Notes under the pieces: generated by a model
What the model was told of the DNA's origin: nothing
The model's input: only the letters and a program-made list of their open reading frames with translations
The model's database searches: none
Translations under genes and position numbers: made by a program
Part shown: one piece after another, positions 16,226-57,643 of the stretch
Layout of the letters: each line of letters opens with the position of its first letter
Numbering within the stretch: position 1 is the stretch's first letter
Source of the DNA: Minisyncoccota bacterium
GTDB taxonomy: Bacteria; Patescibacteriota; Minisyncoccia; Phycocordibacterales; UBA1006
Length of the DNA: 64,000 nucleotides
Direction: 5' to 3'
NCBI GenBank assembly: GCA_021734445.1
Contig: JAIPIY010000001.1
Span: 185,306 to 249,305 of the forward strand

Positions 16226-16315
16226 ACTTATATAGTATCACGAGACCAAATAGAATCACAATCATTTTTAAATGTAATAGGCATTTTTTTCATTTTTTAA
16301 AAACTATGATACACT

Positions 16316-16765
16316 TTGATCATGGATAATTTTTTAAACCGATTTTTAAAATCAAAACGAGACGGCGAAAATACCAATAAACCCACTTCTCCAGAATCTG
16401 GATTAGACGTTCCCCCATCTGTTGACCCTGCATATTTTTCAGAAATATTACACCATCTTGAATCAAATGGATTTGATCAATCAAAAGCTTCTGCCAGCAT
16501 TATCAGAAATCTTGGGGCAGAGAGTACAAAAACTGGTGAATATGTTTCATTTAGTGATATCACTATCAAACAAGCAACGGAAATTGCTCTTGACCCATCG
16601 CATCCAATCCATAAAGAAATAATTGATAAGAAAAAAGGAATTAGTGAATCAAAAAGAAACATGCTTGGAAAAGCATATGATGAGACATTCAACCCTAATC
16701 AACAATTTGCAGATCTGGGTGACACGATAGAAAACGAAGAAAAGGGAGGCACTCGAATCGATTAA
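16316..16765 (+). CDS. Hypothetical protein, paralog of the gene at 59694-60146
   Basis: Shares ALDPSHPIHKEI...EKGGTRID with ILDPNSPVHKLF...LKGGSRVD in the other copy. Followed by a terminator. Confidence 0.5.
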   Translation: MIMDNFLNRFLKSKRDGENTNKPTSPESGLDVPPSVDPAYFSEILHHLESNGFDQSKASASIIRNLGAESTKTGEYVSFSDITIKQATEIALDPSHPIHKEIIDKKKGISESKRNMLGKAYDETFNPNQQFADLGDTIENEEKGGTRID

Positions 16766-16774
16766 GAACCTATA

Positions 16775-16810
16775 ACAAAAAACAAGCAAGAAAATCTTGC
16801 TTGTTTTTTG
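16775..16810. terminator. Bidirectional terminator aaaaaacaagcaag-aaaat-cttgcttgttttttg
   Basis: 9-bp stem with flanking A and T runs, between the convergent genes 16316-16765 (+) and pnp (-). Confidence 0.55.
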
Positions 16811-16834
16811 TTATATATACATTAATATGTATTT

Positions 16835-18973
16835 TTATTTTTTCTGAACAATAAACTCAGGGTTATCTTTTTTGATAGATAAACTAATTCGGTCACGCTC
16901 TTTGTCGATAGCAACAACGGTTACCGGAACCATTTGTCCTTCTGTTAAATAATCAGAAACCTTTTCAATACGAAATGGTGCGATTTCAGAAACATGCACT
17001 AACCCATCAGCAAAAGGAGATATACTGACGATAGCACCAATTTCCAAAACTTTGCGAACGGTTCCTTGTGCAGTTTCACCCACAGTCCATTCTTTTGTCA
17101 TATTTGCAATCATGTCACGAGCCATTTCTGCAGATCCATTTTTTCCAATACAATATACCAAACCATCTTCTTCGATAGTAATTTCTGCACCAGTTTTTTC
17201 ACGAATTTCATTTATTGTTTTTCCTCCGGAACCAATCACCATACCAATTTGTGATGGATAAATACGCAATGAAACAATCTTGGGCGCATGCAAAGAAACA
17301 TCTAACCGAGGTTCTGCAATTGTTTGTTGTAGTACATCCAAAATCTGCAAACGAGCTTTTTTAGCTGAACCTAATGCATCAACCAAAATATCCACAGGAA
17401 TTCCATCTAATTTAATATCCAATTGAATTGCTGTAATTCCATTTCTTGTTCCAGCAACCTTGAAATCCATATCACCATAATGATCTTCTACACCCTGAAT
17501 GTCAGTTAACAATGCATACTGTGAAACATCTTCCGTGTTTAACATTAATCCAACAGAAATTCCCGCAACTGGCGCCAACAATGGAACACCTCCATCCATT
17601 AATGCCAATGTCGATGCGCACACCGACGCCTGTGACGTAGAACCATTTGATGCCATACATTCAGAAACCACACGAATCGTATATGGGAAAACTTCTTTCG
17701 ATGGAATGACAGAAACCAATGCTTTTTCTGCCAATGCACCATGACCAATTTCACGCCGATTTAATCCACCAAAACGCCCCGTTTCTCCAACAGAAAATGG
17801 AGGAAAATTATAATGATGCATGAAACGTTTTATACCTTTTGTTTCCATGCCATCCATCGTGTACGCATCTTCTGGACCACCCAATGTTAATACGGACAAC
17901 ACATGAGTTTCTCCTCGGTAAAAAATTCCTGTTCCGTGTAATAATGGTGACAACCCACCCGCCTGTGCATACAAATCACGCACCTGATCTAATGTGCGAC
18001 CATCGGCACGTTTTCCATGAGAAAGAGCTAATTCATGTACCATCGCATCAACCGTTATTTCATAATAATGATGTGCTTGAGCAAAAATATCATCACGGTC
18101 TACATACTGTTCACGTAATGCATTTCTGTATGTTTCTTCTACTTCGTGAAACACTTTTTTATCAGCAGTACCATTTTCTAAATGGTTCCACAAAATATCT
18201 CGTACGGTGGTGTGAAACACGTCAGCTAATTCTGTTGGCACCACCGGTAGGGGGATATCGCGTTTTTCTTTTGCAATCTTTGCAATAATATCTTTTTGAA
18301 ATTGTTCCAGTGTGGCAATCGCAGAAATAGCATCGGTAAAACTTTGTGCCATAATTTCTTCTGAAACCTGACATGCCATAGATTCAATCATCGTAATACG
18401 ACCTTGGCGCGCACACACCAACAAATCAAAATCATAATCGTATTCAGAAGTAGATTTTTCTGTAGATCGTACGTATCGATTTAATGCAATATCTTTTTCT
18501 CCTACAGGACGACGCAATGCCACCGCACCCACGGGTCCGTTCCACGGAATATCAGAAACCGCCAATGCCAACGATGCAGCATTGATACCCAGAATCACTG
18601 GATCAAACGATCCTACAGATAATACGGTTACCACAATTTGAATTGAATTTTTTATATGATGAGAAAACAACGGACGCAATGTTCGGTCAATAATACGACA
18701 TGCCAAAATTGCTGTTTCAGATGGACGACCTTCACGTCGCATAAAACGACTGCCTAATATTTCCCCACTAGCATAAAATTTTTCTTGGTATTCAACCTGC
18801 AAATTAAAGAACCCTGGATTATGATCTCCGTTTGCAGACATACATGCTGTTGCTAATACAACAGTATCACCCGATCGCATAATTACTGCACCATGAGCCT
18901 GGTCTACCAAATTAGAAAATTCGGCAACAATCTCGTGTTCACCCAATTGCACTTTGTATTCTTGTTTTATCAT
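16835..18973 (-). CDS. pnp: Polynucleotide phosphorylase (PNPase)
   Basis: 712 aa with two RNase PH domains and C-terminal KH and S1 domains. Highly conserved N-terminus. Confidence 0.95.
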   Translation of the reverse strand: MIKQEYKVQLGEHEIVAEFSNLVDQAHGAVIMRSGDTVVLATACMSANGDHNPGFFNLQVEYQEKFYASGEILGSRFMRREGRPSETAILACRIIDRTLRPLFSHHIKNSIQIVVTVLSVGSFDPVILGINAASLALAVSDIPWNGPVGAVALRRPVGEKDIALNRYVRSTEKSTSEYDYDFDLLVCARQGRITMIESMACQVSEEIMAQSFTDAISAIATLEQFQKDIIAKIAKEKRDIPLPVVPTELADVFHTTVRDILWNHLENGTADKKVFHEVEETYRNALREQYVDRDDIFAQAHHYYEITVDAMVHELALSHGKRADGRTLDQVRDLYAQAGGLSPLLHGTGIFYRGETHVLSVLTLGGPEDAYTMDGMETKGIKRFMHHYNFPPFSVGETGRFGGLNRREIGHGALAEKALVSVIPSKEVFPYTIRVVSECMASNGSTSQASVCASTLALMDGGVPLLAPVAGISVGLMLNTEDVSQYALLTDIQGVEDHYGDMDFKVAGTRNGITAIQLDIKLDGIPVDILVDALGSAKKARLQILDVLQQTIAEPRLDVSLHAPKIVSLRIYPSQIGMVIGSGGKTINEIREKTGAEITIEEDGLVYCIGKNGSAEMARDMIANMTKEWTVGETAQGTVRKVLEIGAIVSISPFADGLVHVSEIAPFRIEKVSDYLTEGQMVPVTVVAIDKERDRISLSIKKDNPEFIVQKK

Positions 18974-26708: not shown

Positions 26709-27635
26709 ATGAAAACCCTCCAAGAATGGAAACGAGAATTTCTTGAATATTTGGAAATCGAAAAAGGTCGAGCCATAAAAACAATTCAGAACTATGATCA
26801 TTATCTGACTGTTTTTATCAATCAGACAAAAGTCACCACACCCGAAGATGTCACATCTCCATTGGTTCGGGATTTTCGACTGTGGTTAAATAGACAGTCA
26901 TCAGGAAACAATCGCGCCACAGGTGCGACCATGTCAAAAAAAACTCAGAATTATTATTTGATTGCTATTCGTTCTTTTCTCAAATACATGACAAAACATG
27001 GTTGCAAAACAATGTCTGCAGATCAAATAGAATTAGCAAAAATAGGAGAACGATCTATTGATATTATTTCTGATACAGAATTACAAAGATTATTAGATGC
27101 ACCAGATGCCGAAGAAAATACTGAAATCAAATACCGAGACAAAGCAATTTTAGAAATGCTTTTTTCTACAGGGTTACGTGTATCTGAATTATGCTCTTTG
27201 ACCAACGACATTGATTTGTCTCGTGATGAATTTTCTGTACGCGGAAAAGGTGGCAAAGTTCGTGTAGTATTTTTATCCCCTGATGCAAAAACTGCCTTAC
27301 AAAAATATTTCAAAGAACGCAAGGATTTTTCAGATGCACTATTTGTCAGCGTTTCACAAAATAAAAACAAGGTAGATGCGAACAAAGGATTAGATAGAAG
27401 ATCTATTGAACGTATTGTAAAAAGATACGCAACTCTTGCTGGTATTACAAAAAAAGTAACCCCCCATGTTATCAGACATTGCTTTGCTACAGACCTTCTA
27501 TCCAACGGAGCTGACATTCGATCGGTGCAGGTAATGTTGGGTCATGCCGATATTTCAACCACCCAGATTTACACGCACGTTACGGATGCAAAACTAAAAG
27601 AGGTACATCAAAGATTTCATGGGAAGAAAAAATAG
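26709..27635 (+). CDS. Tyrosine site-specific recombinase (XerC/XerD-like)
   Basis: N-terminal SAM-like core-binding domain. The C-terminal catalytic motifs include the arginine in ...TGLRVSELCSL... and ...HVIRHCFATDLLSNGADIRSVQVMLGHADISTTQIYTHV (H-x-x-R ... Y). Confidence 0.85.
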   Translation: MKTLQEWKREFLEYLEIEKGRAIKTIQNYDHYLTVFINQTKVTTPEDVTSPLVRDFRLWLNRQSSGNNRATGATMSKKTQNYYLIAIRSFLKYMTKHGCKTMSADQIELAKIGERSIDIISDTELQRLLDAPDAEENTEIKYRDKAILEMLFSTGLRVSELCSLTNDIDLSRDEFSVRGKGGKVRVVFLSPDAKTALQKYFKERKDFSDALFVSVSQNKNKVDANKGLDRRSIERIVKRYATLAGITKKVTPHVIRHCFATDLLSNGADIRSVQVMLGHADISTTQIYTHVTDAKLKEVHQRFHGKKK

Positions 27636-35628: not shown

Positions 35629-35700
35629 GCACCTGTGGTGAAATGGATATCACAACGGTCTTCGGAACCGTTATTCTAGGTTCGAATCCTGGCAGGTGCA
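35629..35700 (+). tRNA. tRNA-Arg (anticodon TCG), CCA not encoded
   Basis: Hand-folded cloverleaf: acceptor gcacctg/caggtgc, D-arm gtga-aatggata-tcac, anticodon arm acggt-cTTCGGa-accgt, T-arm ctagg-ttcgaat-cctgg, discriminator A. Confidence 0.75.
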
Positions 35701-36478: not shown

Positions 36479-36549
36479 GCGGGTATGGTTTAGTGGTAGA
36501 ACACGTCCTTGCCAAGGATGAGTCGGGAGTTCGATTCTCCCTACCCGCA
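36479..36549 (+). tRNA. tRNA-Gly (anticodon GCC), CCA not encoded
   Basis: Acceptor gcgggta/tacccgc, anticodon arm cgtcc-tTGCCAa-ggatg, T-arm gggag-ttcgatt-ctccc. Followed by a long hairpin terminator at 36555-36594. Confidence 0.85.
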
Positions 36550-37926: not shown

Positions 37927-37999
37927 CGGGGTGTGGTGTAACGGCTAACATGCTGGTTTTGGGTACCAGTGACTCTGGGTTCGAATCCCAGCACCCCGA
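37927..37999 (+). tRNA. tRNA-Pro (anticodon TGG), CCA not encoded
   Basis: Acceptor cggggtg/caccccg, anticodon arm ctggt-tTTGGGt-accag, T-arm ctggg-ttcgaat-cccag, discriminator A. Confidence 0.85.
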
Positions 38000-44234: not shown

Positions 44235-44308
44235 GCGGGACTAGTTTAGTGGTAGAATGACTGCCTTCCAAGCAGTAGACAAGAGTTCGATTCTCTTGTC
44301 CCGCACCA
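44235..44308 (+). tRNA. tRNA-Gly (anticodon TCC) with encoded CCA
   Basis: Acceptor gcgggac/gtcccgc, anticodon arm actgc-cTTCCAa-gcagt, T-arm aagag-ttcgatt-ctctt, discriminator A then CCA. Confidence 0.85.
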
Positions 44309-44369: not shown

Positions 44370-46451
44370 GTGTATAATATACATATGAACGAGAGAATCC
44401 CATTAAACAGTAAAGCTCTCCAACAAGAAGGTGCCCCTGAGACCTTTTTAGACGAGATCTCAGAAAAAGCACGACATGACAATATAGAAGATGAATATTT
44501 AAGTTTTAAAAACGGTTTAAGTAAATATAATCTATCTAATCCAAATCTAAAATCTTATGTTCAAGAAGTTTTTTCTAACAGGGATTTAACCCTGCAGTTA
44601 AGTTTCCTATTAGAGATTTATCCAATAATGATGGGAGTAAGCGATACAATCAGTGATATTTTAGATAGTATATCAGACTTTGAGCTAAAAGATTCTCATT
44701 CTTTTGAAAGAAAGTATTATAAACATGTTGAATCGGAGGTTATGAATCTTAAAAAGCTTTTTGATATATTATCGGGAATTAAGTTAGACAAAGATGCTCC
44801 GGCTTTCGTAAGTCTTCTAAAAAAGATAGCAGAGAAAGAAATACTCGAAGCATTTTTATACCACAGCAATCATAATCCGGACACAAAACTCCATGAATAT
44901 TATTCTGAAAAAAGTAGCGAATATAATCAAGAGTATGTATATCCTGGTTTACCAGTTTATAATATCTACCCACAAAAAATTTCAAATGATTTTTGGGGTT
45001 ACACAGAAGATGGTAAACTTATGATTGCTCGTTCTTCACCAGAAAAAACGTTAGCACTTGAAAATTTAGAAAGAGAAATAAATACTAAATTATCTAATGT
45101 AAAAGAGTCTGTAAGTTTATCTAATTTATTTTCAAAAAGAAATAATATTCTTAAAGAAATAGAAAAAAGAAAAGCTAAACCTATCACAGTGAATGATGTA
45201 TATCGTAGTTCTACTATAGAAAAAACATCAGAAGAGCTCACAAAAGAATTTATGTTCCTAAAGAACATGAGTGGTTTTTTAGGAAGTTATTTAAAAGTTG
45301 ATTTCTTAAAATTGTCATTAGGTGAAACTTTTTTGGTTTTACAATATTTGGAAACCAAGAACGAGGAATCCTTAAACAAAGTTTTAAAAATTGCAAGTAA
45401 ATTTCCAGCAAACAATAATTTTTGGAAGACCTTTCTCTCTATTGAACATGGCGGGCAAGAAATGGGAGATAAGATTCTCACCATTGGTGAAAAATTACCA
45501 AAAAATATCGCAGAAAAAGTGTTTACAAAATATAGTGAATATATTGATGCAGTTGAAAACACAGATAATTTTGTTACTGAACTATATACAAAACAAAAAC
45601 CAAAACCCGAAGTAGTACAAAAAATCAAAGAAAACCTTCTTGTAAAAGGGAAGAATATATTACTTTCTCAATATGAAAAAATCCAAACGGGAACATTTGA
45701 TGAAAAAAAATTCCAAGAGTTTATAGATGGGGCAAAAGCGGATATTGACCTATTCAAAAATACATTCAAAATTACCCTAGAAGAAAATCCTGACACAAAT
45801 TTTGAAGATTTTTTGGGAATGAGAACAGAGATGAAACCTGGTACAGAAATCGAGCAATCGACCATACAAAGCATTGACACTATAATCGAAAAGAATTACA
45901 AAGAAGAAGAACTTCGAAATTCAGTTAAAAATTCATTTCATCAATCTCTTCATCATCCAACAACCCAAGTTTCAGTATTAAAACGAGAAGATAAGATTAT
46001 CGCATCAAATCGAATTGATTTCAAAGAAGATGGTACATTGTATTTTGGTACATTTAATGTTGACCCAGATTATTGTAGTTCTAAAATAGGTGATGCGTTT
46101 TTCAAAGCGACGATACTTCCTTATATGGAAAAACACGTCATCCAAGCAGATTGTTCTGCCCGTCAACCTATTAGCGCATATTATATTGAATCTGGATTTA
46201 TTGGTACTGCATTATATGATTATAATGGTGAACCATCTCTTTCAATAGAAACAACTTTGGATTCAGTTTTTGATTCAAAAAAACTTTCAAAAAAAGAGGT
46301 ACTCGACCTCCTTGACTCTGGTGATACAAAATATACTATAAGAAAGTTCGCTAACCAAGAAGATATTACCCACAACTATCCTGCTGATAAAAAATTAACC
46401 CGATTTTTCTTTGATAGAAATTCTAAAGAATGGATTGCTCTTTGGGAGTAA
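44370..46451 (+). CDS. Large Lys/Glu-rich hypothetical protein
   Basis: 693-aa uninterrupted ORF with no recognisable motif. Its 3' end overlaps the convergent TrmB gene by 29 nt. Confidence 0.45.
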   Translation: MYNIHMNERIPLNSKALQQEGAPETFLDEISEKARHDNIEDEYLSFKNGLSKYNLSNPNLKSYVQEVFSNRDLTLQLSFLLEIYPIMMGVSDTISDILDSISDFELKDSHSFERKYYKHVESEVMNLKKLFDILSGIKLDKDAPAFVSLLKKIAEKEILEAFLYHSNHNPDTKLHEYYSEKSSEYNQEYVYPGLPVYNIYPQKISNDFWGYTEDGKLMIARSSPEKTLALENLEREINTKLSNVKESVSLSNLFSKRNNILKEIEKRKAKPITVNDVYRSSTIEKTSEELTKEFMFLKNMSGFLGSYLKVDFLKLSLGETFLVLQYLETKNEESLNKVLKIASKFPANNNFWKTFLSIEHGGQEMGDKILTIGEKLPKNIAEKVFTKYSEYIDAVENTDNFVTELYTKQKPKPEVVQKIKENLLVKGKNILLSQYEKIQTGTFDEKKFQEFIDGAKADIDLFKNTFKITLEENPDTNFEDFLGMRTEMKPGTEIEQSTIQSIDTIIEKNYKEEELRNSVKNSFHQSLHHPTTQVSVLKREDKIIASNRIDFKEDGTLYFGTFNVDPDYCSSKIGDAFFKATILPYMEKHVIQADCSARQPISAYYIESGFIGTALYDYNGEPSLSIETTLDSVFDSKKLSKKEVLDLLDSGDTKYTIRKFANQEDITHNYPADKKLTRFFFDRNSKEWIALWE

Positions 46452-47205
46452 TAGACCAAAGATATTCAAAAACCGCTTTGTGCATTTTGTAGATAGAAGC
46501 ATCTTCGATAATAACTCCGATCATTGAATTTTCTTTTAACGTTATATAGGATATTTTATTTTCATAAATTTGCATAATCGTTTCAAATTCAAGGGCGTCA
46601 AATTTTGCAAATTTTGTTTCTGTTATTTCTGTATGGTATTCTTTGATCGTTGCACGAGCCTGTGGTGTATCCAACATCATACCTTTTTTCTGTATTCCTA
46701 TTTTTTTTCTTTCCTGTGTATATTCTTCGTTTATTTTAGGAATATATTTCATGACAGCGTCTAAATCAACATAGGTGTATATTACTGTTTCTTTAGGAAC
46801 AGTCAGAGTATCCCACAACACCTTTCGTATCCCACTTAGCCCTTCATAAAACTGAATATTGGGTTTATCTGACAGTAAATTATATTTTGAAACAAATGAT
46901 CCCAAAGAAACAGCCACGGTTTCTTTTGATAAGGTGATTGCTTTTTCTTTTTGTTCAATAAAGCGCAGTATCTGAGAAGGGTGCTCTGGAAAAAAAACTG
47001 CAACGCTACCAGAACCACCTTTTTTTGAAACTAACAACATTCCCTCTAATTGTTCTAACACCTTGTATACTAGACTTCTTTTGATTCCAGTCCATGTTGC
47101 TAATACACTGGCCTTTTGTGGACCTTTTTCTAATAGGGCATTATAAATCAATGCTTGTTCTTCAGACAAACCAGCTTCGATAAGTATATTTTCTTCAGCA
47201 ATCAT
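46423..47205 (-). CDS. TrmB-family transcriptional regulator (third copy)
   Basis: wHTH LSEEQALIYNALLEKGPQKASVLATWTGIKRSLVYKVLEQL plus the TrmB C-terminal domain. Confidence 0.65.
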   Translation of the reverse strand: MIAEENILIEAGLSEEQALIYNALLEKGPQKASVLATWTGIKRSLVYKVLEQLEGMLLVSKKGGSGSVAVFFPEHPSQILRFIEQKEKAITLSKETVAVSLGSFVSKYNLLSDKPNIQFYEGLSGIRKVLWDTLTVPKETVIYTYVDLDAVMKYIPKINEEYTQERKKIGIQKKGMMLDTPQARATIKEYHTEITETKFAKFDALEFETIMQIYENKISYITLKENSMIGVIIEDASIYKMHKAVFEYLWSITPKEQSIL

Positions 47206-48309
47206 ACAAAAAGTATAGCATATATTATATTGTTATGCAAATATGACAATATGATTATTAAATATATGTTATAAAATAAGGGCTTTTTATATATAAAAGT
47301 GTTTTTGTTATCATAACATTGACAGATAGAGAAATAAATGCTATACTGTAGCCAGAAGATTGATTAGTTCTTTAAGAGATATGTTCAAAACATCTGGAGT
47401 TCACTCAAACGGTCAGGGGAGCCAAAAACACCCCAATCAAGGCAATAGCCAAGATGAGGAGAGAGTAACTCGTGAAAAATAGATGCTTCAACCATATCTG
47501 TTTGCGACAGACCTTTGGATGACAACAGCAAACTTGTCAGAAAAAGGAACCACCTGTCACCCGGTATCATCACACAAGATACAACGCTATCGTGAAGATA
47601 TTGACTGGGACAGCAAGAAATTAACCCGTCTTGCTCCCAGAAATATCTTTAGGATCTCAATCTGCCTTCGCTAAAGCTACGGCATGATAAAGAGGAGAGA
47701 ATAAAGAGAGAAAGCACTTTGACAACAAAATAAAAACAGGCGCATAGCATCTGCACAGGTGACATATTCACGACAGGATGATCTGCGAGCCTGAACCTAA
47801 AATGTATTTAAACGGTATTCATATGACAAGAGAGAGTGTGATATGGATACCGCGGATACAAAGGTGTCGTATCGAATATATGTCCAAGTAGTATCTTTTT
47901 GTAGATTTCCTTGGACACAGGACAAAACTAACTGTTCGAGGAGATCTACAAAAATCTCTCTCCTCGAAGATAATTACACATAACATATATTCCATACGTA
48001 GACATCTTTGTATCCGCGGTGAAAGCCGTTGTCATTCCAACTGACATAAAACAGTGGACGCGAAAAGTAATCAGTGCGAGAAACGATTGCAGTTACATTC
48101 TTGTTCAATTTGGCAAAAGTGATAAGTTTTTACAAAAAAGATTTATCACTTTTGCCAAAGAAAACCCATGCGGTGAGTATCTTGCGTAAAACAAATCCGA
48201 AAAAGGCATGCCAGCCAGCAAGTCGGATAGGTAAGAGTTGACTGCAGGGGAAAGACCTGATGTAAATCCCAGATAAACTTCAAATCCTCGACTGGGCGAG
48301 GTGAAAAAA

Positions 48310-49665
48310 ATGAGAGGAACAACGCACAATGGCAGTCATTTCGCCAACAAAGGAACATCTCGATCTAGTGGAGAGAGTATGTTTTCAGTTGGCAATCTTG
48401 TGGCATTTCGCTACAACTATTATTCTTCTCCAGACGGGAGAAGCAGTAGTCGAGGTTTATGTCCGACTACAAACCATTATCTGCTTCAAGAGGAGATTCT
48501 CCTCGAAGAGTACGACAACACAAGCCATGACGGCTATGGGGGTGGAGATTACGACATCCGAGAGATTGTTGAAATGTCGGACATTTTCTGGCACGAATAT
48601 TCAGCAGATGTTGTACTTAAGACATTCTTGCTCCAGGTTTTGGAGACCAACAAGAATATTTTTTTCAACAACTTCATCTCCGGTGATATTGCCGAGGTGA
48701 GAAATCACCCAGGCAGATTTCTTCATATTTACGAAATCCCGGAAGGGTATCGTGAATGTGAAGCTGAGACATTCGAGGCAACTGTCGAAAAAATCAACCT
48801 ACAGAAAAAGCAGGAAGATGATTTCGAGGTTGAGAAAGTAGCAAAGCGTTACCGCGGAATTGAGCTTGTTTTTGGTATCACCGCCAATGGGTGGTACGCT
48901 AGTCGTGCATCATTCGGGAAGCATTCTGTGCAACTCCAACATAAACATGATGACACTCGCAGAAGTCACTACAGGTTGGTGATTATGCCCTGCGTACCAA
49001 ATGGTAGTTATCAGTTTTATATTGGTGGAACTCCTATGTACTTGCATTTACAAGACGGAAGAGAGCCATCAATTGACACATTGACTAACACCCATTGGGC
49101 CAACAGCCAAAGCTGGAAGTATTGCGAAATTCAGACCTTAACAATTGAGAAAGGCTGGATATTCATTAATGGAGAGGATGTGTTTGAAAACACAAAGAAA
49201 ATCATTGATGAACTACGGGCGTCTCAAAAAAGTGCCCGTAATAATAAGTTTGAGGAACTTTCAAAAATCGTTGCTGAAAAGCATAGTGAAGGAATTCTCA
49301 AGCTTGTACTTCGCAAGAAGGGTTCAGTTCTTGCAATTTTGAAAGTGTTGAGCGAAAGTCCGACACAAGTAGAAATTGTTGATCTGGTAAAAATCCTAGA
49401 GCTATCAAGCTCTGCACCAGTAATTGCCAATCTCATAGATTTTGTAGCCAGTAAAGTAAACCCTTTCAAAGCAGCGAAAGTTGCCGAGAAAGCATACGCC
49501 TGGTCATACCTTCGAAACGCCTTACCGGGCGTTGGGTTCACTGGATACTTTGAAGACGCCAGTACGGCGTTACAGATTTATTCAAAGAACTGGAAAGCAG
49601 AAACCAGAAGCGGAGATAACTCCGCAATGGAAGATGCTCTTTGGAGGGCAGGGTTAATAAAATAA
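48310..49665 (+). CDS. Hypothetical protein in a GC-elevated island
   Basis: RBS gaggtg lies 7 nt before ATG 48310. About 450 aa, no recognisable domain, codon usage unlike the host genes. Confidence 0.45.
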   Translation: MRGTTHNGSHFANKGTSRSSGESMFSVGNLVAFRYNYYSSPDGRSSSRGLCPTTNHYLLQEEILLEEYDNTSHDGYGGGDYDIREIVEMSDIFWHEYSADVVLKTFLLQVLETNKNIFFNNFISGDIAEVRNHPGRFLHIYEIPEGYRECEAETFEATVEKINLQKKQEDDFEVEKVAKRYRGIELVFGITANGWYASRASFGKHSVQLQHKHDDTRRSHYRLVIMPCVPNGSYQFYIGGTPMYLHLQDGREPSIDTLTNTHWANSQSWKYCEIQTLTIEKGWIFINGEDVFENTKKIIDELRASQKSARNNKFEELSKIVAEKHSEGILKLVLRKKGSVLAILKVLSESPTQVEIVDLVKILELSSSAPVIANLIDFVASKVNPFKAAKVAEKAYAWSYLRNALPGVGFTGYFEDASTALQIYSKNWKAETRSGDNSAMEDALWRAGLIK

Positions 49666-49846
49666 CGGGTTAGGGTTAATCAAAGGGCAAGCGACATAAA
49701 AATCGCTTGCCCTCGTTATTGAAATCTTGAGTTGTAAAAGATTCGAGGTTTCATTGCGAGTTAAGTTGAACTAAAAACTTTACACAATCCGGGTGTAGAA
49801 TTCTTGCTTGTGCAAGTTTTGTAGTCGAGAGGCAACGGAAGAAAGA

Positions 49847-50266
49847 ATGGTAAAAAAAAATTTGAATTTTTTGCAACTTGTTGAGGTTCTCGATGGATTT
49901 GGAGGACCACTCCTTGGAATGATTTCTCTGTTTATCAAACAACAATGGGAAATCCTTGTCTGTGTTGAAAAAGCAGACCAGATCTGCCGAGAATACTTAC
50001 TTGAAGAGGTTGATGGATTCATAACCGTCAATATTGATTATGCTTTCGAATATGATGCGAGTGAACTTATAATCCACTACAATTCCCGTAGTGGGAAATA
50101 TTATAAGTTTACCATCTCAAGAGAGTTTGGATTTCCACGTGGTGGACTGTGTCACAGCATGGAATATCCTGAAGATTCAGCGCTGGCTGATTTTATTCAA
50201 GAAGTGTCTTCTTTATCAGGGAGACATCCAAATCCTCTTTTTCGCGGGAGAGAAACCAATGAATAG
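49847..50266 (+). CDS. Hypothetical protein (island gene 2)
   Basis: RBS ggaag lies 6 nt before ATG 49847. Preceded and followed by the ggttagggttaa + hairpin module. Confidence 0.4.
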   Translation: MVKKNLNFLQLVEVLDGFGGPLLGMISLFIKQQWEILVCVEKADQICREYLLEEVDGFITVNIDYAFEYDASELIIHYNSRSGKYYKFTISREFGFPRGGLCHSMEYPEDSALADFIQEVSSLSGRHPNPLFRGRETNE

Positions 50267-50395
50267 TGGTTAGGGTTAAACTGGGCGAGCTCAACGTAGC
50301 TCGCCCTTTCTATATCAATACGAAACACTTTTTGGTGTTGATTAGAGAGAGATTGACTTATTTTGTCTGGATGATATTGTAAAGATAAACCAACC

Positions 50396-50749
50396 TTGTC
50401 AGCTATGAACAATCAAGATGTAATTGCACGATTTGATCGACCCAACAAACAATGGAACGTCTCAGCACCGGACTTTATGGGAGCCCTTGATACTTGTATC
50501 ATTAGCGGATGCACCATTGAAATTCCTGAAGATGCTACAGGTATCCAGGATGTAATATTCCACGGGTCACACCTTCAAAACCCCGAAGAGATGGAATTGT
50601 CTGGAGAGATTACTTCCGTCCTCTTTAACTCTGAAACAAAGCGTTTCGAGGATACCAGTGGTAAAGAAGTTGTCATCAATGGACAACATGTTCTTTGTTC
50701 TGAAATTGGAATGGTTTTCCACATATCGGAATCAGTTACACCCCAGTGA
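50396..50749 (+). CDS. Hypothetical protein (island gene 3)
   Basis: 117-aa ORF followed by a strong terminator. Confidence 0.4.
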   Translation: MSAMNNQDVIARFDRPNKQWNVSAPDFMGALDTCIISGCTIEIPEDATGIQDVIFHGSHLQNPEEMELSGEITSVLFNSETKRFEDTSGKEVVINGQHVLCSEIGMVFHISESVTPQ

Positions 50750-50754
50750 GCCCC

Positions 50755-50807
50755 GCCCTGTTGTCTGCACATTCGCAGGCGACAGGGCTTTTTTTTGACT
50801 TTACAGA
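50755..50807 (+). terminator. Rho-independent terminator gccctgttgtctgcacattcgcaggcgacagggc + T9
   Basis: Long GC stem plus TTTTTTTTT immediately after the 50749 stop. Confidence 0.65.
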
Positions 50808-50848
50808 ATCCACGTGCTATTCTAAAAAAGAACCAAAACCGACTGATC

Positions 50849-51205
50849 ATGTACCTTGTATACTGGAATTTGCTTGCAAAGAAGTGGGTATGCCATCATG
50901 CAGGAAAAACAACAGAAGAAACTTTTTTCTCTGGAACAAATGCAAATTTTTGGATAATCCCACAAAATCGCTTAACGGCATTGAGTCAAATAGAGACAAG
51001 GCCCGAGCTAATAGCCCCCAATGAACATGTTCATGCATTCATTGGACTGAGTACGATAGGACACCATCGACAATTTAAATCTCAGGAAGAGACTGAAGTG
51101 TACCATGATCTTACATCAGGTCTTTTCAAGAAGAAAGAAACGGGAGAAGAAATTCATAACGCACCTCAAATTCTTTTCACCGATTCTGGCAAGATGTTTG
51201 TCTAA
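50849..51205 (+). CDS. Hypothetical protein (island gene 4)
   Basis: The ORF begins inside the preceding terminator, so the start is placed at Met 50849 (MYLVYWNLL...). Followed by a terminator. Confidence 0.35.
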   Translation: MYLVYWNLLAKKWVCHHAGKTTEETFFSGTNANFWIIPQNRLTALSQIETRPELIAPNEHVHAFIGLSTIGHHRQFKSQEETEVYHDLTSGLFKKKETGEEIHNAPQILFTDSGKMFV

Positions 51206-51226
51206 TCTCAATCGGAAACCAATAAC

Positions 51227-51258
51227 CCGCACCCTATCAAGGGTGCGGTACTTTTTTA
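51227..51258 (+). terminator. Rho-independent terminator ccgcaccc-tatcaa-gggtgcgg + TACTTTTTT
   Basis: 8-bp GC stem plus T-run. Confidence 0.6.
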
Positions 51259-51329
51259 TACAAAAATTTTATAAAACAAAAACCCATCACGGGAGAGTAA
51301 CGGGTTTTTGTTTTATAGAGCAAGAAAAA

Positions 51330-51608
51330 TTATTTTCCAGCTACCAAATCTTTCAAAGCTTTTCCAGCTTGGAATTTTGGAACTTTTGTTGCAGCAACTT
51401 TTACCATTTCACCTGTTCGAGGGTTTCGAGCTTCACGTGCAGCACGTGGTTTTACTTTGAAAATCCCAAAACCAGCGATTGAAACATCTGTTCCTTTTTT
51501 CAAAGACCCAGCGATTGCTTCAAAAATTCCTGAAACAACACCTTCTGCTTGTACTTTTGTACCACCTAATTGTTGTTGTACCATTTCTATAAGATCATTT
51601 TTGTTCAT
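51330..51608 (-). CDS. hup: HU-family DNA-binding protein
   Basis: MNKNDLIEMVQQQ...GFGIFKVKPRAAREARNPRTGE is the signature HU arm. Confidence 0.9.
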   Translation of the reverse strand: MNKNDLIEMVQQQLGGTKVQAEGVVSGIFEAIAGSLKKGTDVSIAGFGIFKVKPRAAREARNPRTGEMVKVAATKVPKFQAGKALKDLVAGK

Positions 51609-51777
51609 ATGCGTATATAATTACTTTTAAAACTTGTTAATAATGATAGAGCATCACCAGAGCGATACTGCATCGATAGGAACCTTCATACGTTATTATA
51701 GGACATGGGTAAAAAAAGAGCAAGTGTTTTTTGAAAAAGGATGAATAAACACAAGGGTATTTTGCTGTCCATGTCAA

Positions 51778-55132: not shown

Positions 55133-56113
55133 TTAATACAAAGAGATTTTCAAGCTTTTTTGAAGATTATATGTATTCCCGTGGCTCAATAGCCCTCGAT
55201 ATGAATTTACTGTTTCAGGTTTTGGATAATTTCTAAGGTTTTTTATCACCTTTCGCTTGGTTGTTGTTCTTATCTGACGATAATGAGGAAAATGTACCCA
55301 GCCCAAGAAATCAACGCCCGAAGCATATGTTTTTATGTACACTTTATCTGGATGAAGCTGTAATTTTAACGTGTTATTTAAAAATAAGTTTATGTTAGAT
55401 AATAAATTTTCAAGATATTTTTTGTCTTGAGACAAAATAACGAAATCATCAGCATATCGAATATAATACCTTACCCGAAGTTCTTGTTTCATATACATAT
55501 CAAACTCATGCATATAAATATTCACAAGCAACTGCGATGTCAGATTCCCCAGTGGCAACCCAACACCTTCTCGAGTTATCTGAAAGCTTTTTATCACTTG
55601 ATGTATCAACCACAACATCTCATCATCTGCAATATGTCGTTTTAAAATAGATTTTAGTACATCATGATCAATACTTGCAAAAAATTTTCTCACGTCACAT
55701 TTTAAAACGTAACATGTTTTTGTATTATTTTTTGATACTTTATTTGCGAACACCTTAAATCTTTCAAACGCCCGATGGGTACCTTTATATTTACGACATG
55801 AATATGAGTCATAAATAAATCTATCATCAAAATACCAATACAATTCTTTATAAATTAAATGATGTACCACCCTATCACGAACAATTGCTTTATGAATATT
55901 TCTTGGTTTAGGGTCAGAAACATTAAATGCAAAATATCCTGAATGTTCGTAGGTTCTTGTATGTAACATAGTATGTAGTTCTATAATATTATCTGCAAGA
56001 TGTGCTTCAAATTCCATGACATCTTTTTTATTACGCTTGCCACGGATAAAACGCCCCCATGTCGAGAGAATATTTTCTATTGATATGATATTATGATAAG
56101 TATGAGTGAACAT
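55133..56113 (-). CDS. Diversity-generating retroelement (DGR) reverse transcriptase
   Basis: RT motifs 1-7 are present, including YADDFVIL. The DGR-specific motif-4 signature GLPLGNLTSQLLVNIY (SQ instead of SP) is also present. 326 aa, adjacent to the TR/VR pair. Confidence 0.8.
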   Translation of the reverse strand: MFTHTYHNIISIENILSTWGRFIRGKRNKKDVMEFEAHLADNIIELHTMLHTRTYEHSGYFAFNVSDPKPRNIHKAIVRDRVVHHLIYKELYWYFDDRFIYDSYSCRKYKGTHRAFERFKVFANKVSKNNTKTCYVLKCDVRKFFASIDHDVLKSILKRHIADDEMLWLIHQVIKSFQITREGVGLPLGNLTSQLLVNIYMHEFDMYMKQELRVRYYIRYADDFVILSQDKKYLENLLSNINLFLNNTLKLQLHPDKVYIKTYASGVDFLGWVHFPHYRQIRTTTKRKVIKNLRNYPKPETVNSYRGLLSHGNTYNLQKSLKISLY

Positions 56114-56495
56114 AATAAAAACATTAAATCTACCCCCCCCCCCGTTAGTATTGGTACGAGCAAAAGAAGTGTATCGTGTGTGGCACTTGCATCTTTCTCA
56201 TGTTAAACGAGTTGATCGTTATACTATTGGAACAAAAATTGATGATGAATTTATATCTATTCTTGAAATAATATTCCGAGCAACTTTTGCGTATGATAAA
56301 TTTGAAAAACTTTCTCTTGTGTCACAAGCTCTTGGTAAAAATGATCTTCTAAAATTCTTTCTGCAATTAGGTTGGGAACAAAAAGTTCTTAATCACACAA
56401 TATACGGACAACTCATTATTCTTTTGGATGAAGTTGGACGTATGTTAGGTGGTTGGAAGAAAAATCTCCAAGAAAAAACTCCCACCAACAAATAA
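56106..56495 (+). CDS. Avd-like accessory variability determinant, on the opposite strand to the RT
   Basis: The C-terminal LLDEVGRMLGGWKKNLQEK resembles the bAvd C-terminal EVGRILGSWI helix. About 125 aa with helical-bundle-like composition. A non-ATG (GTG/TTG) start is needed. Confidence 0.55.
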   Translation: MNIIKTLNLPPPPLVLVRAKEVYRVWHLHLSHVKRVDRYTIGTKIDDEFISILEIIFRATFAYDKFEKLSLVSQALGKNDLLKFFLQLGWEQKVLNHTIYGQLIILLDEVGRMLGGWKKNLQEKTPTNK

Positions 56496-56515
56496 GTTAG
56501 TGGGAGAAAAAAATG

Positions 56516-56637
56516 AGTAGCAGAAGCACAACAGGCAATTGTCACCGTCCCAGTCATTCTCGAAGTTCCCGAGGTTGAACTTCCAGTCACCGTCCGAGTT
56601 CCGGTTCACGTTCGGCACCCTGTGGTAACCGTCAGAG
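56516..56637 (-). repeat. DGR template repeat (TR)
   Basis: About 122 bp, aligning without gaps to the VR at 56983-57104. 20 of 22 mismatches are minus-strand A in the TR against another base in the VR. In frame it encodes an Asn(AAC)-rich segment NVNRNSDGDWKFNLGNFENDWDGDN. Confidence 0.75.
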
Positions 56638-56977
56638 GACGCCCAAGCTTTTTGTATGAAATATTGTCTATTCCACCACATCTAACACCAGTCAGACGTT
56701 GTATTTCATTTGGAGTTTAAAAACTCTCTCATATTTCACACCGACTTATTTTTGTTTTTTCATTCAAGGAGGCTCTCGTTTCAAAGGCGTACCCATCAAA
56801 CTTCTCGCCAAAACCCTGTACGAGATTTCAATGCCGTGAAGTCGTAACCGCACGTTCGTATCTACTTTCCAAAATCAGTATAACTGAAATATAAAAAATA
56901 AAAAAGAGCACTTGCTTTCGCAAGTGCTCAAAGGGTCAAAGACCCAAATTAGAAACAAGGTACCAAGTGCCAAAGGA

Positions 56978-57643
56978 CTATAAGTCGCAGAAGCACAACA
57001 GGCAACGGACACCGACCCAGTCAAGCCCGAAGTCCCCGAGGAGGAACCAACAGCCACCGTCCGAGCACCGGAACACGAGCGGCACCCTGCGGTAACCGTC
57101 AGAGTCTTTCCACAGAGAATCCTTTTCATCAAAGGACACTGTGTATTTACCCACCGGAAACTCGTCTGGCTTGTTGGCTTGCAACAAAGTGAGACCTTGT
57201 CCACCCACGAGGATGGCATGTTGCTTCGCAAGGAATCTCATACAATCTTCGCTGGTTACCGTTGCCAATATCGGGAAGATTCGCACGCGATACTTCTTGC
57301 TCGGCTCCAGCTCGTTGGTCGCTTTCGCAAAATTCTTGCTGGTAAGGGCATCATTGAAGTAATACGTGGTTGAAAGCAGTTTGGTCTTCCCGGCAAAGGT
57401 ATCGAGCTGGGTGTCGTGCTTGTAATCTGACGGCACCGTGAACTCGAAATCCTTTATTGCGGGACCGAAACGCTGGTCCACCATGGCAAGTTTTTGCAGG
57501 ATCGGCTTGATCTGTTTCTGCATTTCACCACCAGATTTGATAATTTCCTGAGCCTCTTCTTTTGAGAGGTTCAACGCCCTGAGACCATCTCGAAAGAGGT
57601 CGGTCAGACGATTTTCTTGGCTTGACGTGATCTTTTCAGTCAT
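56978..57643 (-). CDS. DGR target protein with the variable region at its C-terminus
   Basis: The last 41 codons (...DGYRRVPLVFRCSDGGCWFLLGDFGLDWVGVRCLLCFCDL) overlie the VR. A hairpin agcacttgctttcgcaagtgct lies 50 nt past the stop. Confidence 0.7.
   Translation of the reverse strand: MTEKITSSQENRLTDLFRDGLRALNLSKEEAQEIIKSGGEMQKQIKPILQKLAMVDQRFGPAIKDFEFTVPSDYKHDTQLDTFAGKTKLLSTTYYFNDALTSKNFAKATNELEPSKKYRVRIFPILATVTSEDCMRFLAKQHAILVGGQGLTLLQANKPDEFPVGKYTVSFDEKDSLWKDSDGYRRVPLVFRCSDGGCWFLLGDFGLDWVGVRCLLCFCDL
56983..57104 (-). other. DGR variable repeat (VR) inside the target gene's 3' end
   Basis: See the TR entry. The 3' 17 nt adjacent to the stop are near-identical to the TR (IMH-like), and the 5' 14 nt are identical. 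Confidence 0.75.

Follow-up and report, generated by a model that had tools for sequence, protein, structure and literature searches.

A candidate RNA-regulated expression locus beside a TrmB-family gene in Candidatus Paceibacteria

The block at 47206-51262 of the window (the whole 64,000-nucleotide stretch of DNA analysed here) joins a long hairpin-rich segment to four genes of obscure function, and raises the question of whether it was acquired horizontally or is a locus whose expression is governed by its own RNA. A preliminary description had allowed for both, naming a defence or phage-derived cassette and a large structured RNA with cargo genes. The latter comes close to the evidence presented below, which comprises an apparently promoter-driven structured leader, covarying elements and a 12-mer lying within a conserved RNA module. 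We lean towards an RNA-regulated expression locus conserved in the Candidatus Paceibacteria lineage, and not an acquired island; the supporting alignments contain 9-24 sequences, some from closely related genomes, and the CM-fitted ones are biased towards the modelled structure.

Composition, neighbourhood and genes of the block

The block has a GC content of 40.6%; the window as a whole stands at 37.6%, and the DNA outside the block at 37.4%. Among 4-kb windows the block ranks in the top 5%. The rise reported in the preliminary description is real, but the values given there (about 45% against 35%) were too high and the rise is not unique, as stretches at ~22.6 kb and ~56.4 kb reach 41.8% and 41.1%, respectively. 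The 693-aa gene directly upstream is AT-rich (30.6% GC) and sharpens the local contrast. Relative to the window mean, the GC of the block stands just 3 points higher.

The following genes were considered:

46423..47205, minus strand, TrmB-family regulator (Pfam TrmB, E = 1.2e-9), conserved left neighbour of the locus
48310..49665, plus strand, ORF1, 451 aa, member of a family without known function
49847..50266, plus strand, ORF2, 139 aa, orphan flanked by two copies of the R1 module; in-frame codon score +0.20
50396..50749, plus strand, ORF3, 114-117 aa, no family match; codon score +0.21
50849..51205, plus strand, ORF4, 118 aa, orphan

The order of a large protein (plus strand), TrmB (minus strand), a gap of 0.8-1.3 kb and ORF1 (plus strand) recurs in related loci L009, L010, L012, L013, L015, L018 and L034, where the TrmB gene occupies the same position, divergent from the leader; these represent 7 of the 11 retrieved Paceibacteria contigs having gene calls. 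Since the block holds the same position in related Candidatus Paceibacteria genomes, it was not recently acquired. Presence in a syntenic position with ordinary housekeeping annotations had been named as evidence against acquisition; the position is found on these seven contigs, the housekeeping annotations are not. The array itself differs in gene content from one close relative to another, within flanks that remain syntenic.

ORF1 has 36 close homologues, and the MAGs among them with a named source are Pacebacteria/Paceibacterota; related genome contigs carry the labels Paceibacteria, Saccharibacteria and Nomurabacteria. The family counts 71 members among 1.84 billion representatives, so far only in Patescibacteria-labelled or unlabelled metagenome contigs. 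Its AF2 model (pLDDT 87.8) matched no fold in PDB or BFVD (viral) at E<0.001; likewise, the sequence gave no matches in Pfam or PDB.

As first described, the four genes lack recognisable domains, with none in Pfam, PHROGs, PADLOC or NCBIfam. Searches of the four proteins in PADLOC and PHROGs yielded no family at a meaningful score: PADLOC models did not match ORF1-3, and ORF4 gave a 17.7-bit partial match to PADLOC Cas3b over ~95 of 705 positions. ORF4 also matched Phage_L5_gp82 below threshold (E = 0.0013, 19 bits vs a cutoff of 27). For ORF2 and ORF4, homologues were sought among 5.8 billion proteins, and each returned only itself. In all four ORFs the in-frame codon usage score is positive and that of every other frame is negative. 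ORF2 to ORF4 are real genes, genome-specific in the case of ORF2 and ORF4 and presumably so in that of ORF3. A promoter-like site (50353-50380) and a plain terminator (50755-50788) belong to ORF3 itself, which lacks R1, and ORF4 has a promoter-like site at 50795-50823 and a terminator at 51227-51248, so neither gene needs read-through.

The leader RNA and the R2 element

The segment between TrmB and ORF1 is free of long ORFs, as had been noted, the longest ORF touching 47206-48300 being 74 aa. It contains the following features:

47230..47249, no strand assigned, palindrome TTGTTATGCAAATATGACAA, a conserved block of the intergenic alignment
47319..47347, plus strand, near-consensus sigma-70 promoter, TTGACA-17-TGcTATACT, extended -10
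47354..47745, plus strand, conserved 5' part of the leader, with blocks common to L002, L009, L012, L013, L015, L018 and L034
47589..47655, plus strand, leader hairpin with apical loop UUAACCC at 47621-47627
47746..48108, plus strand, variable hairpin-rich part, not alignable across loci
48109..48312, plus strand, R2, about 200 nt, the 5'UTR element of ORF1

The palindrome, which lies between the TrmB gene and the promoter and inside inverted-repeat arms (47224-47236 and 47243-47255), is a putative operator. The promoter matches 11 of 12 consensus positions with the TG present, and is kept in 8 loci (relatives named: L002, L009, L010, L012, L013, L015 and L017). The leader of about 950 nt (959 nt folded as a whole, z = -21) would be transcribed from it and consists of three parts, namely the conserved 5' part, the variable part and R2. 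RNAalifold applied to 9 loci returned 24 pairs, 21 of them in the leader hairpin and 3 in a small upstream helix, with compensatory changes in 18 of the 24; the loop UAACCC is invariant in the 9 loci.

The inverted repeats and the hairpin reported earlier for this segment are borne out, the repeats on a larger scale than claimed: 47849-47883 and 47983-48020 form a stem that encloses inner hairpins, and the two 23-nt arms of the hairpin at 48109-48159 show 91% complementarity. The region 47840-48030 folds at -83.2 kcal/mol (z = -11.6) and includes a near-perfect long hairpin, 47848-48020. Within this hairpin lies ATCTCTCTCCTC (47954-47965), a motif of which relatives have a single copy in each locus, where the array ends, and which is here upstream of ORF1. 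Conversely, this window has no R1 upstream of ORF1, though relatives have one. The locus is therefore rearranged in this window relative to its relatives.

When the whole window was searched with the 4227 families of Rfam 15, only four tRNAs passed the gathering threshold. The block remained below threshold for all families, including OLE, GOLLD, ROOL, HEARO, raiA, EAR and the known riboswitches; its best scores (47150-51300) were 17-22 bits against thresholds of 40-208. R2 is thus new in the sense of being absent from Rfam. Its parts are:

48112-48120 and 48148-48156, plus strand, u and m strands of hairpin P0
48230-48238, plus strand, d strand; R2 also has a multi-helix core
48268-48272 (CCCAG) and 48292-48296 (CUGGG), plus strand, helix
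48286-48290 (CCUCG) and 48297-48301 (CGAGG), plus strand, helix sequestering the Shine-Dalgarno sequence
48298-48304, plus strand, Shine-Dalgarno sequence of ORF1, with the ATG at 48310

The R2 model matched 18 of 18 ORF1 loci at 90-213 bits, among them L017, L032 and L033, in which ORF1 has a different genomic setting; nucleotide identity across all ORF1 loci is 72-81%. Its 31 pairs are formed in 97.8% of alignment cells and 22 of them change on both sides, while slide controls were 28-41% paired and none of 500 shuffles reached the observed values. Helix 6, which the model did not include, is likewise paired (100%), in 6 sequence variants. R2 contains two pairs of covarying helices whose members exclude each other. 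In one, the m strand pairs either with u, forming the long hairpin P0, or with d, closing the multi-helix core; the three strands covary together (e.g., ATATGAA in L004 and GACAA in L007), and P0 (-20 to -49 kcal/mol) is far stabler than the m-d helix. In the other, the alternatives are CUGGG pairing with CCCAG and the adjacent CGAGG, which shares bases with the Shine-Dalgarno sequence, pairing with CCUCG. Both of these helices are 100% paired and covarying, and they abut without a linker, so that by geometry they should not both form fully.

A conserved, covarying structured domain with exclusive helices that affect the Shine-Dalgarno sequence places R2 among cis-regulatory 5'UTR RNAs in general. 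Because one of the exclusive helices hides the Shine-Dalgarno sequence, R2 resembles a riboswitch-type translational switch, and we infer that it acts on ORF1 in response to a ligand or factor. Its core has many invariant unpaired nucleotides, which are typical of ligand-binding RNAs. A protein- or RNA-responsive leader fits R2 equally well.

The R1 module

The 12-mer GGTTAGGGTTAA occurs exactly at 49668-49679 and 50268-50279. Its presence with a hairpin after each of the first two genes had been described correctly, at coordinates one base off. With up to one mismatch it has 2 matches in the window against 0.22 expected, a number reached in 2 of 100 shuffles. The 12-mer is part of R1, a ~95-nt RNA module in which an A/U stem clamps a terminator-like hairpin and a second hairpin follows. 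The copies in the window are:

49658..49758, plus strand, R1 copy 1 (85.2 bits, E = 4.5e-13): P1 49663-49668 with 49713-49718, including the ORF1 stop codon; 12-mer; P2 49685-49712; P3 49721-49752; AUUGCG 49753-49758
50259..50347, plus strand, R1 copy 2, degenerate (30.8 bits, E = 0.004): 12-mer; P2 terminator hairpin 50283-50306

In 13 related loci R1 is found both ahead of and behind array genes, invariably on the sense strand, and every locus has its copies grouped in the stretch from downstream of TrmB through the array genes. In the 64 kb of the window these are the only 2 copies, and switching filters off over 47000-51700 added none. A dispersed repeat of the REP/MITE type was ruled out by this confinement to the locus.

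The alignment of 24 copies from 12 loci is 92.1% paired, and 24 of its 27 pairs covary. When read as antisense, pairing falls from 92.1% to 79.0% of cells; G·U pairs number 92 and A·C pairs 10, so the structure was selected on the transcribed strand. P1 is 79% paired, its outer stem being AAUAACG/CGUUAUU in some copies and AAUAAG/CUUAUU in many others. In P3, 99.6% of cells are paired and G·U positions are conserved. P2 stems vary by compensatory substitution between genomes. Genomes whose ORF1 proteins are only 39-55% identical share the exact 12-mer and the P3 flanks, and between L013 and L015 the elements are 82-92% identical and the genes 68-77%.

With its U-rich tail, the first hairpin of R1 looks like an intrinsic terminator. 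In L013, all six P2 hairpins were independently called terminators, and the array there has a single promoter of 11/12 matches; the L013 copies at 5163, 6643 and 8439 share their P2 sequence. An independent scan for the consensus of a GC-rich hairpin with a U-rich tract also called P2 of copy 2 in the window terminator-like. Copy 1, with a weak U-tract (tail UCGUUAUU), is borderline and was not called.

A working model, its rivals and known systems

In the model that we propose, a single strong promoter beside the divergent TrmB gene would drive the long structured leader RNA, and R2 would open or hide the ribosome-binding site of ORF1 in response to a ligand or factor. RNase III typically acts on long perfect hairpins of the P0 kind, and P0 may be a processing site at which the ORF1 mRNA is detached from the leader. 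The R1 modules would act as checkpoints of regulated termination or processing between array genes, those without a promoter of their own being expressed only through read-through from the leader promoter. This read-through might be modulated by the conserved leader or by a factor that the leader or the 12-mer recruits.

Horizontal acquisition of the block as a defence or phage-derived module seems very improbable. It would agree with the modestly raised GC, the orphan status of ORF2 and ORF4, the weak Phage_L5_gp82 match and the variable array content. However, synteny of the core (TrmB, leader, R2-ORF1) extends across Paceibacteria, no PADLOC or PHROG family was matched at a meaningful score, codon usage is host-like in all four ORFs, and the edges of the block show no integrase, tRNA-flanked boundary or direct repeat; a scan for the 12-mer element in viral contigs gave 13 stretches in contexts unlike R1. 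The proposal of an acquired cassette thus finds little footing, and the genomic island class was rejected given core synteny in 7 loci, GC 3 points up and host-like codon usage. Also quite improbable is an integron-like cassette array without integrase (CALIN), in which R1 would be an attC-like DNA recombination site capturing promoterless orphans. Such an array would explain unrelated orphan genes in one direction behind one strong promoter, a structured repeat after each with the stop codon often inside its first stem, AAC...GTT in the outer stem of type-A R1 copies, and contents that differ between close relatives with syntenic flanks. Yet AAC/GTT becomes AAG/CTT in many copies, and no integrase lies near the array: the sole tyrosine recombinase in the 64 kb (26709-27629, tblastn with Xer/Int protein) is Xer-like, 20 kb away and 63% identical to a gene beside rpsO in L009, and relatives have no integrase beside their arrays except the Xer-like gene by rpsO in L009, L012 and L016. 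Moreover, attC recombines as a folded bottom strand, whereas the R1 fold is specific to the sense strand; P2 with its U-tract behaves as a terminator; and the ORF1 units elsewhere in genomes (L017, L032, L033) lack R1. The attC boxes RYYYAAC...GTTRRRY are not conserved, the outer stem being variable and P1 only 79% paired.

A third account, unlikely in our judgement though a possibility to be weighed, holds that R1 and the hairpins are ordinary terminators or stabilising or processing stem-loops and that R2 is a protein-bound autoregulatory leader and not a metabolite riboswitch; similarity among R1 copies would then come from gene conversion or recent duplication, and R2 could be bound, for example, by ORF1. 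The terminator consensus of P2 with its U-tract, the shared P2 in L013, the RNase III-like P0-type hairpins and the lack of a metabolic gene linked to R2 all accord with it. Ordinary terminators do not readily account for a 12-mer and P3 flanks that outlast the divergence of ORF1, for compensatory change in P2, for the near-complete pairing of P3 with conserved G·U, or for a module confined to the locus; and the invariant unpaired nucleotides of the R2 core resemble those of ligand-binding RNAs.

Among known systems, integron and CALIN arrays share with the block the same-strand orphan array, the single promoter, the repeat over the stop codon and the variable content; the block differs in lacking an integrase and conserved AAC/GTT boxes, in the sense-strand fold and terminator-like character of R1, and in the fact that R1 does not travel with ORF1. 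The RNase III and stabiliser hairpins of the T7 early region and REP elements similarly place related stem-loops between polycistronic genes, with long, near-perfect stems (P0, 47848-48020). R1, in contrast, is confined to one locus and not dispersed through the genome, is linked to no RAYT-type transposase, and is conserved across genomes, with a single-stranded box of 12 nt plus a further hairpin. The strong promoter, long conserved structured leader and several terminators in a same-strand array recall cis-acting antitermination RNAs (HK022 put, Bacillus EAR) and nut-type sites, and the conserved 12-mer of R1 beside its variable hairpin would be comparable to the boxA and boxB arrangement of a linear box plus a hairpin. 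In its architecture the block would fit processive antitermination, without sequence or Rfam similarity to EAR or put, and the R1 box stands at every terminator and not once in the leader. With translational riboswitches, R2 shares a conserved multi-helix 5'UTR domain, strong covariation, invariant unpaired nucleotides, consistent attachment to a single gene family (18 of 18 loci) and exclusive helices, with the Shine-Dalgarno sequence masked by one of them. It differs from them in matching none of 4227 Rfam families, in regulating a gene family of no assigned function and in having a second, unusual switch, where the closing strand competes with an upstream, stabler hairpin of 20-25 bp.

Gene order, composition and gene content of the locus

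The block at 47206-51262 was compared with related loci, designated here by L numbers, among them contigs of Candidatus Paceibacteria. Seven other Paceibacteria contigs have the same gene order, namely a large protein (+), TrmB (-), a gap of 0.8-1.3 kb with few or zero called genes and a member of the ORF1 family (+), often with the housekeeping genes hup, rny, clpP or tig on the 3' side. This shared order argues that the core of the block is inherited in place and was not recently acquired. The part that varies between genomes is the gene set around ORF1: three additional genes lie between the gap and ORF1 in L013 and one in L015, and L010 has two genes 3' of ORF1. Across all loci, the cargo genes of the array (the same-strand genes around ORF1) resemble neither each other nor ORF1, as judged by BLAST and the ORF1 HMM.

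Features of the window discussed in the text
35629-35700, 36479-36549, 37927-37999 and 44235-44305, +, four tRNA genes
46423-47205, -, TrmB gene
47319-47347, leader promoter TTGACA-17-TGcTATACT, 11/12 matches, extended -10
47354 to about 47745, conserved 5' part of the leader, with conservation in blocks
47746-48108, variable part of the leader, not alignable between genomes, yet hairpin-rich in each
48109-48312, R2, the third leader part, tied to ORF1
48310-49665, +, ORF1 (451 aa)
49658-49758, copy 1 of the RNA module R1, 85 bits
49847-50266, ORF2
50259-50347, copy 2 of R1, degenerate, 31 bits
50396-50749, ORF3
50849-51205, ORF4
55133-57643, diversity-generating retroelement (DGR)
about 55133-56017, -, RVT_1 reverse transcriptase of the DGR
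about 56106-56495, bAvd gene of the DGR

The GC content of the block is 40.6% versus 37.6% for the window, and the contrast of 45% with 35% in the preliminary description was thus overstated. This value ranks among the highest 5% of 4-kb windows, and two other stretches of the window equal it. The step at the block looks larger because the AT-rich gene upstream, coding for 693 aa, has 30.6% GC. This gene (44370-46451), the real compositional outlier beside the block, lies directly downstream of the tRNA gene at 44235-44305 and is convergent and overlapping with the TrmB gene. In relatives, its counterparts code for 587-813 aa, show a weak GNAT acetyltransferase signal and are TrmB-linked in every case.

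A further GC peak, at 56.7-57.5 kb, is part of the DGR. The template and variable repeats of this element (125 nt each, 56513-56637 and 56980-57104) are 82% identical, and 20 of their 23 mismatches fall at T on the + strand, that is at A on the - strand, which identifies the first copy as the template. A gene of 221 aa on the - strand (about 56978-57643) has the variable copy at its 3' end. The block was rejected as a target of this DGR, which has its own repeat pair and shares no repeat with the block. Near the related locus in L034, another RVT_1 reverse transcriptase and Transposase_mut were found (16050-17066), and near that in L015 an IS200-like Y1 transposase and a GIY-YIG nuclease (15787-16509 and 9643-9894). 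The only XerC/D-like tyrosine recombinase gene detected in the window (26709-27629) is 63% identical to a gene beside rpsO in L009.

As previously described, the four genes of the block carry no recognisable domains: none has an above-threshold match in Pfam, PHROG, PADLOC or NCBIfam. Codon-usage scores of all four are positive in frame and negative in each of the five alternative frames, which makes it probable that the genes are real. A set of 5.8 billion proteins contains no homologue of ORF2 or ORF4; ORF3 and ORF4 each have their own promoter-like site and plain terminator. In the protein database, ORF1 matches uncultured-bacterial entries only, and the 100%-identical NCBI entry is a hypothetical protein from a Candidatus Pacebacteria MAG. 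Its family counts 36 close members, and 71 among 1.84 billion cluster representatives, some of which share the N-terminal or the C-terminal part alone. The AlphaFold model is confident (pLDDT 87.8), beta-rich at residues 1-290 and helical at 292-446. Neither PDB nor BFVD contains a matching fold, and at sequence level ORF1 matches nothing in Pfam or PDB. Ten distant members with different domain combinations likewise contain no Pfam domain.

The leader RNA and its R2 element

The locus has a conserved promoter, kept in eight loci, and a conserved structured leader. A conserved palindrome, TTGTYAYGCAAATNTGACAA, lies between the promoter and the TrmB gene and is a putative operator. From its presumed start to the ORF1 ATG the leader measures 959 nt (fold z = -21). 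The earlier observation that the segment 47206-48300 is ORF-free was correct, as no ORF longer than 74 aa touches it. Small conserved ORFs in the gap, a pseudogene and an alternative genetic code were all rejected, since the small gap ORFs of relatives share no similarity; the gap is conserved in patches with many indels, which also counts against coding readings. A leader peptide behind the conserved AAAGGAGAU was discarded after a by-eye alignment check, in which spacing and frames were inconsistent between loci.

The clearest feature of the conserved 5' part is a hairpin at 47589-47655. RNAalifold predicted 24 pairs from nine loci, 21 of them in this hairpin, with compensatory changes at 18 of the 24; the apical loop contains UAACCC in all nine. 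In the window, the variable part contains a long near-perfect hairpin with ATCTCTCTCCTC at 47954-47965. The nested inverted repeats reported for this region are longer than claimed (47849-47883 pairs with 47983-48020); the predicted folding energy here is -83 kcal/mol (z = -11.6). Relatives carry a single gene-strand copy of ATCTCTCTCCTC per locus, within a large stem-loop of terminator-like form that ends the array, normally after the last R1 module (L003 8571, L005 2359, L007 3880, L009 8652, L013 9102, L015 10055, L018 9662). Since the motif stands upstream of ORF1 in the window, the window locus is rearranged relative to its relatives. The complement of ATCTCTCTCCTC, GAGGAGAGAG, is a conserved leader block.

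The third part, R2, accompanies ORF1. Roughly 115-210 nt 5' of the ORF1 start share 72-81% nucleotide identity in every ORF1 locus, and R2 is kept also in L017, L032 and L033, where ORF1 has unrelated genomic contexts; in L017 the R2-ORF1 unit has its own copy of the leader-type promoter. A covariance model matched 18 of 18 loci at 90-213 bits. The consensus from 15 sequences comprises 31 pairs in seven helices, 97.8% paired, of which 22 change on both sides; shuffled controls were 83% and slid controls 28-41% paired.

R2 contains two covarying pairs of alternative helices, one of which involves the Shine-Dalgarno sequence. In that switch, CCCAG (48268-48272) pairs with CUGGG (48292-48296), a helix outside the model that is still 100% paired with six sequence variants. 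The competing helix, CCUCG (48286-48290) with CGAGG (48297-48301), covaries as well, is likewise 100% paired, and sequesters the Shine-Dalgarno sequence GAGGUGA. Because the CUGGG and CGAGG strands abut without a linker, we read the two helices as unable to form fully together. In the other switch, strand m (ACUUUUGCC, 48148-48156) has two alternative partners. With the upstream strand u it forms P0, a hairpin of 20-25 bp, which corresponds to the 17-bp-stem hairpin already noticed at 48109-48159. With the downstream strand d (GGUAAGAGU, 48230-48238) it closes a multi-helix core. The three strands change together in L004 (AUAUGAA), L007 (GACAA) and L003 (UUACGA). As P0 is far more stable than the m-d helix, strand m would need to be freed, which might happen as the RNA folds during transcription or when RNase III cuts P0.

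R2 has no Rfam match, and the block as a whole gave none at gathering threshold or at E <= 10. Judged from its comparative anatomy, R2 is riboswitch-like, as would suit a translational riboswitch or a factor-responsive leader; with its uncommon double switch, it has good support as a candidate new riboswitch-like class. A perfect complementarity of 13 nt (32 nt at 78%) was also noted between 48251-48263, AAAGACCUGAUGU where the ORF1 5'UTR is most conserved, and 51113-51125, ACAUCAGGUCUUU in the ORF4 coding region; this may be coincidental or reflect contact between RNAs.

R1 modules and competing explanations of the array

The repeated 12-mer GGTTAGGGTTAA has two exact copies, at 49668 and 50268, as reported before, with 0.22 expected at no more than one mismatch. 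It proved to be the single-stranded box of R1, an element about 95 nt long. This module consists of an A/U-rich outer stem P1 (in the window UAACGG/UCGUUA, whose first three bases double as the stop codon of ORF1), the box GGUUAGGGUUAA, a GC-rich hairpin P2 of variable sequence, a second hairpin P3 and a 3' end of AUUGSG or AUAGGG. At a cut-off of E <= 0.05, below which weaker third and second copies in L003 and L005 fall, the model found 24 copies in 12 loci, and two more in L034 bring the loci to 13. All lie on the gene strand and flank array genes on both the 5' and the 3' side. L013 has six copies, L015 three, the window, L002, L003, L009, L012 and L034 two each, and L005, L007, L010, L016 and L018 one. 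No further copy was found in the window even with filters off, and the R1 copy upstream of R2 in relatives is absent there. The three loci with ORF1 outside the TrmB-leader context contain none.

R1 is a sense-strand RNA fold with a terminator-like hairpin, confined to this locus type. Its structure is 92.1% paired, with 24 of 27 pairs covarying; P3 reaches 99.6% pairing and keeps conserved wobbles. The excess of G·U over A·C (92 vs 10) indicates selection on the sense-strand fold, i.e. on RNA. An independent scan called P2 and the U-rich tail an intrinsic terminator in all six L013 copies and in window copy 2. The leader promoter is the only strong promoter of the L013 array. Between L013 and L015, R1 elements are 82-92% and genes 68-77% identical. 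A viral-contig scan for the 12-mer with TTATTGA returned 13 stretches, about the chance number, in unrelated contexts without R1 hairpins. Literature searches gave only telomere papers for the 12-mer, and nothing relevant on integrons or structured RNAs in Patescibacteria.

The architecture would fit an integron-like array in which R1 serves as the recombination site of cassettes, but this explanation fails the tests run: there is no integrase, the sole Xer-like gene lying 20 kb off; the AAC/GTT boxes are not conserved; and R1 folds on the sense strand, is terminator-like and does not move with ORF1. The acquired defence or phage island suggested by the preliminary description is contradicted by synteny in relatives, absent family matches and host-like codon usage, and this false lead can be set aside. 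For function, plain terminators combined with a protein-binding leader are a serious alternative, although they would leave the cross-genome conservation of the 12-mer and of the P3 flanks unexplained.

Possible regulatory roles and relation to known systems

We suggest that R2 gates ORF1 translation on a signal and that R1 modules act as termination or processing checkpoints. Expression of the promoterless array genes would then hang on read-through from the leader promoter, possibly tuned by the leader or by a recruited factor. A bolder reading, which we consider quite unlikely, makes the leader and R1 a platform for RNA-guided read-through (antitermination), with R2-ORF1 as a separate new riboswitch class built on a three-strand switch. 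Speculatively, the invariant leader loop YUAACCC would pair with the GGGUUAR boxes of R1, two overlapping copies of which occur in cGGGUUAGGGUUAA directly 5' of each R1 terminator, and the leader block GAGGAGAGA with AUCUCUCUCCUC of the end-of-array terminator. The window, L013, L015, L012 and L018 do have this loop-box complementarity (7-8 bp), which lacks discriminating covariation. These pairings are given a low probability: the complementary stretch is short, and L002, with its degenerate R1 boxes, does not have it. If antitermination holds, one highly expressed RNA would set how far transcription enters an exchangeable set of orphan genes.

The genomes of CPR (Candidate Phyla Radiation) bacteria are tiny, and gene regulation in these organisms is hardly known. 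About a quarter of this 4-kb locus is conserved structured RNA described in no database. R2 would guard a protein family so far seen only in these bacteria, for which neither the PDB nor viral fold libraries offer a match, and a ligand, if identified, would be the first functional handle on the ORF1 family. A single promoter combined with numerous conserved terminator modules and exchangeable orphan genes may be a new mode of organisation and gating for a variable gene set. The leader, R1 and R2 are all absent from Rfam, and literature searches gave no description of them. Cis-regulatory leaders are known kinds of element, and so are intercistronic hairpins for termination or processing; their particular combination and the double three-strand switch are not.
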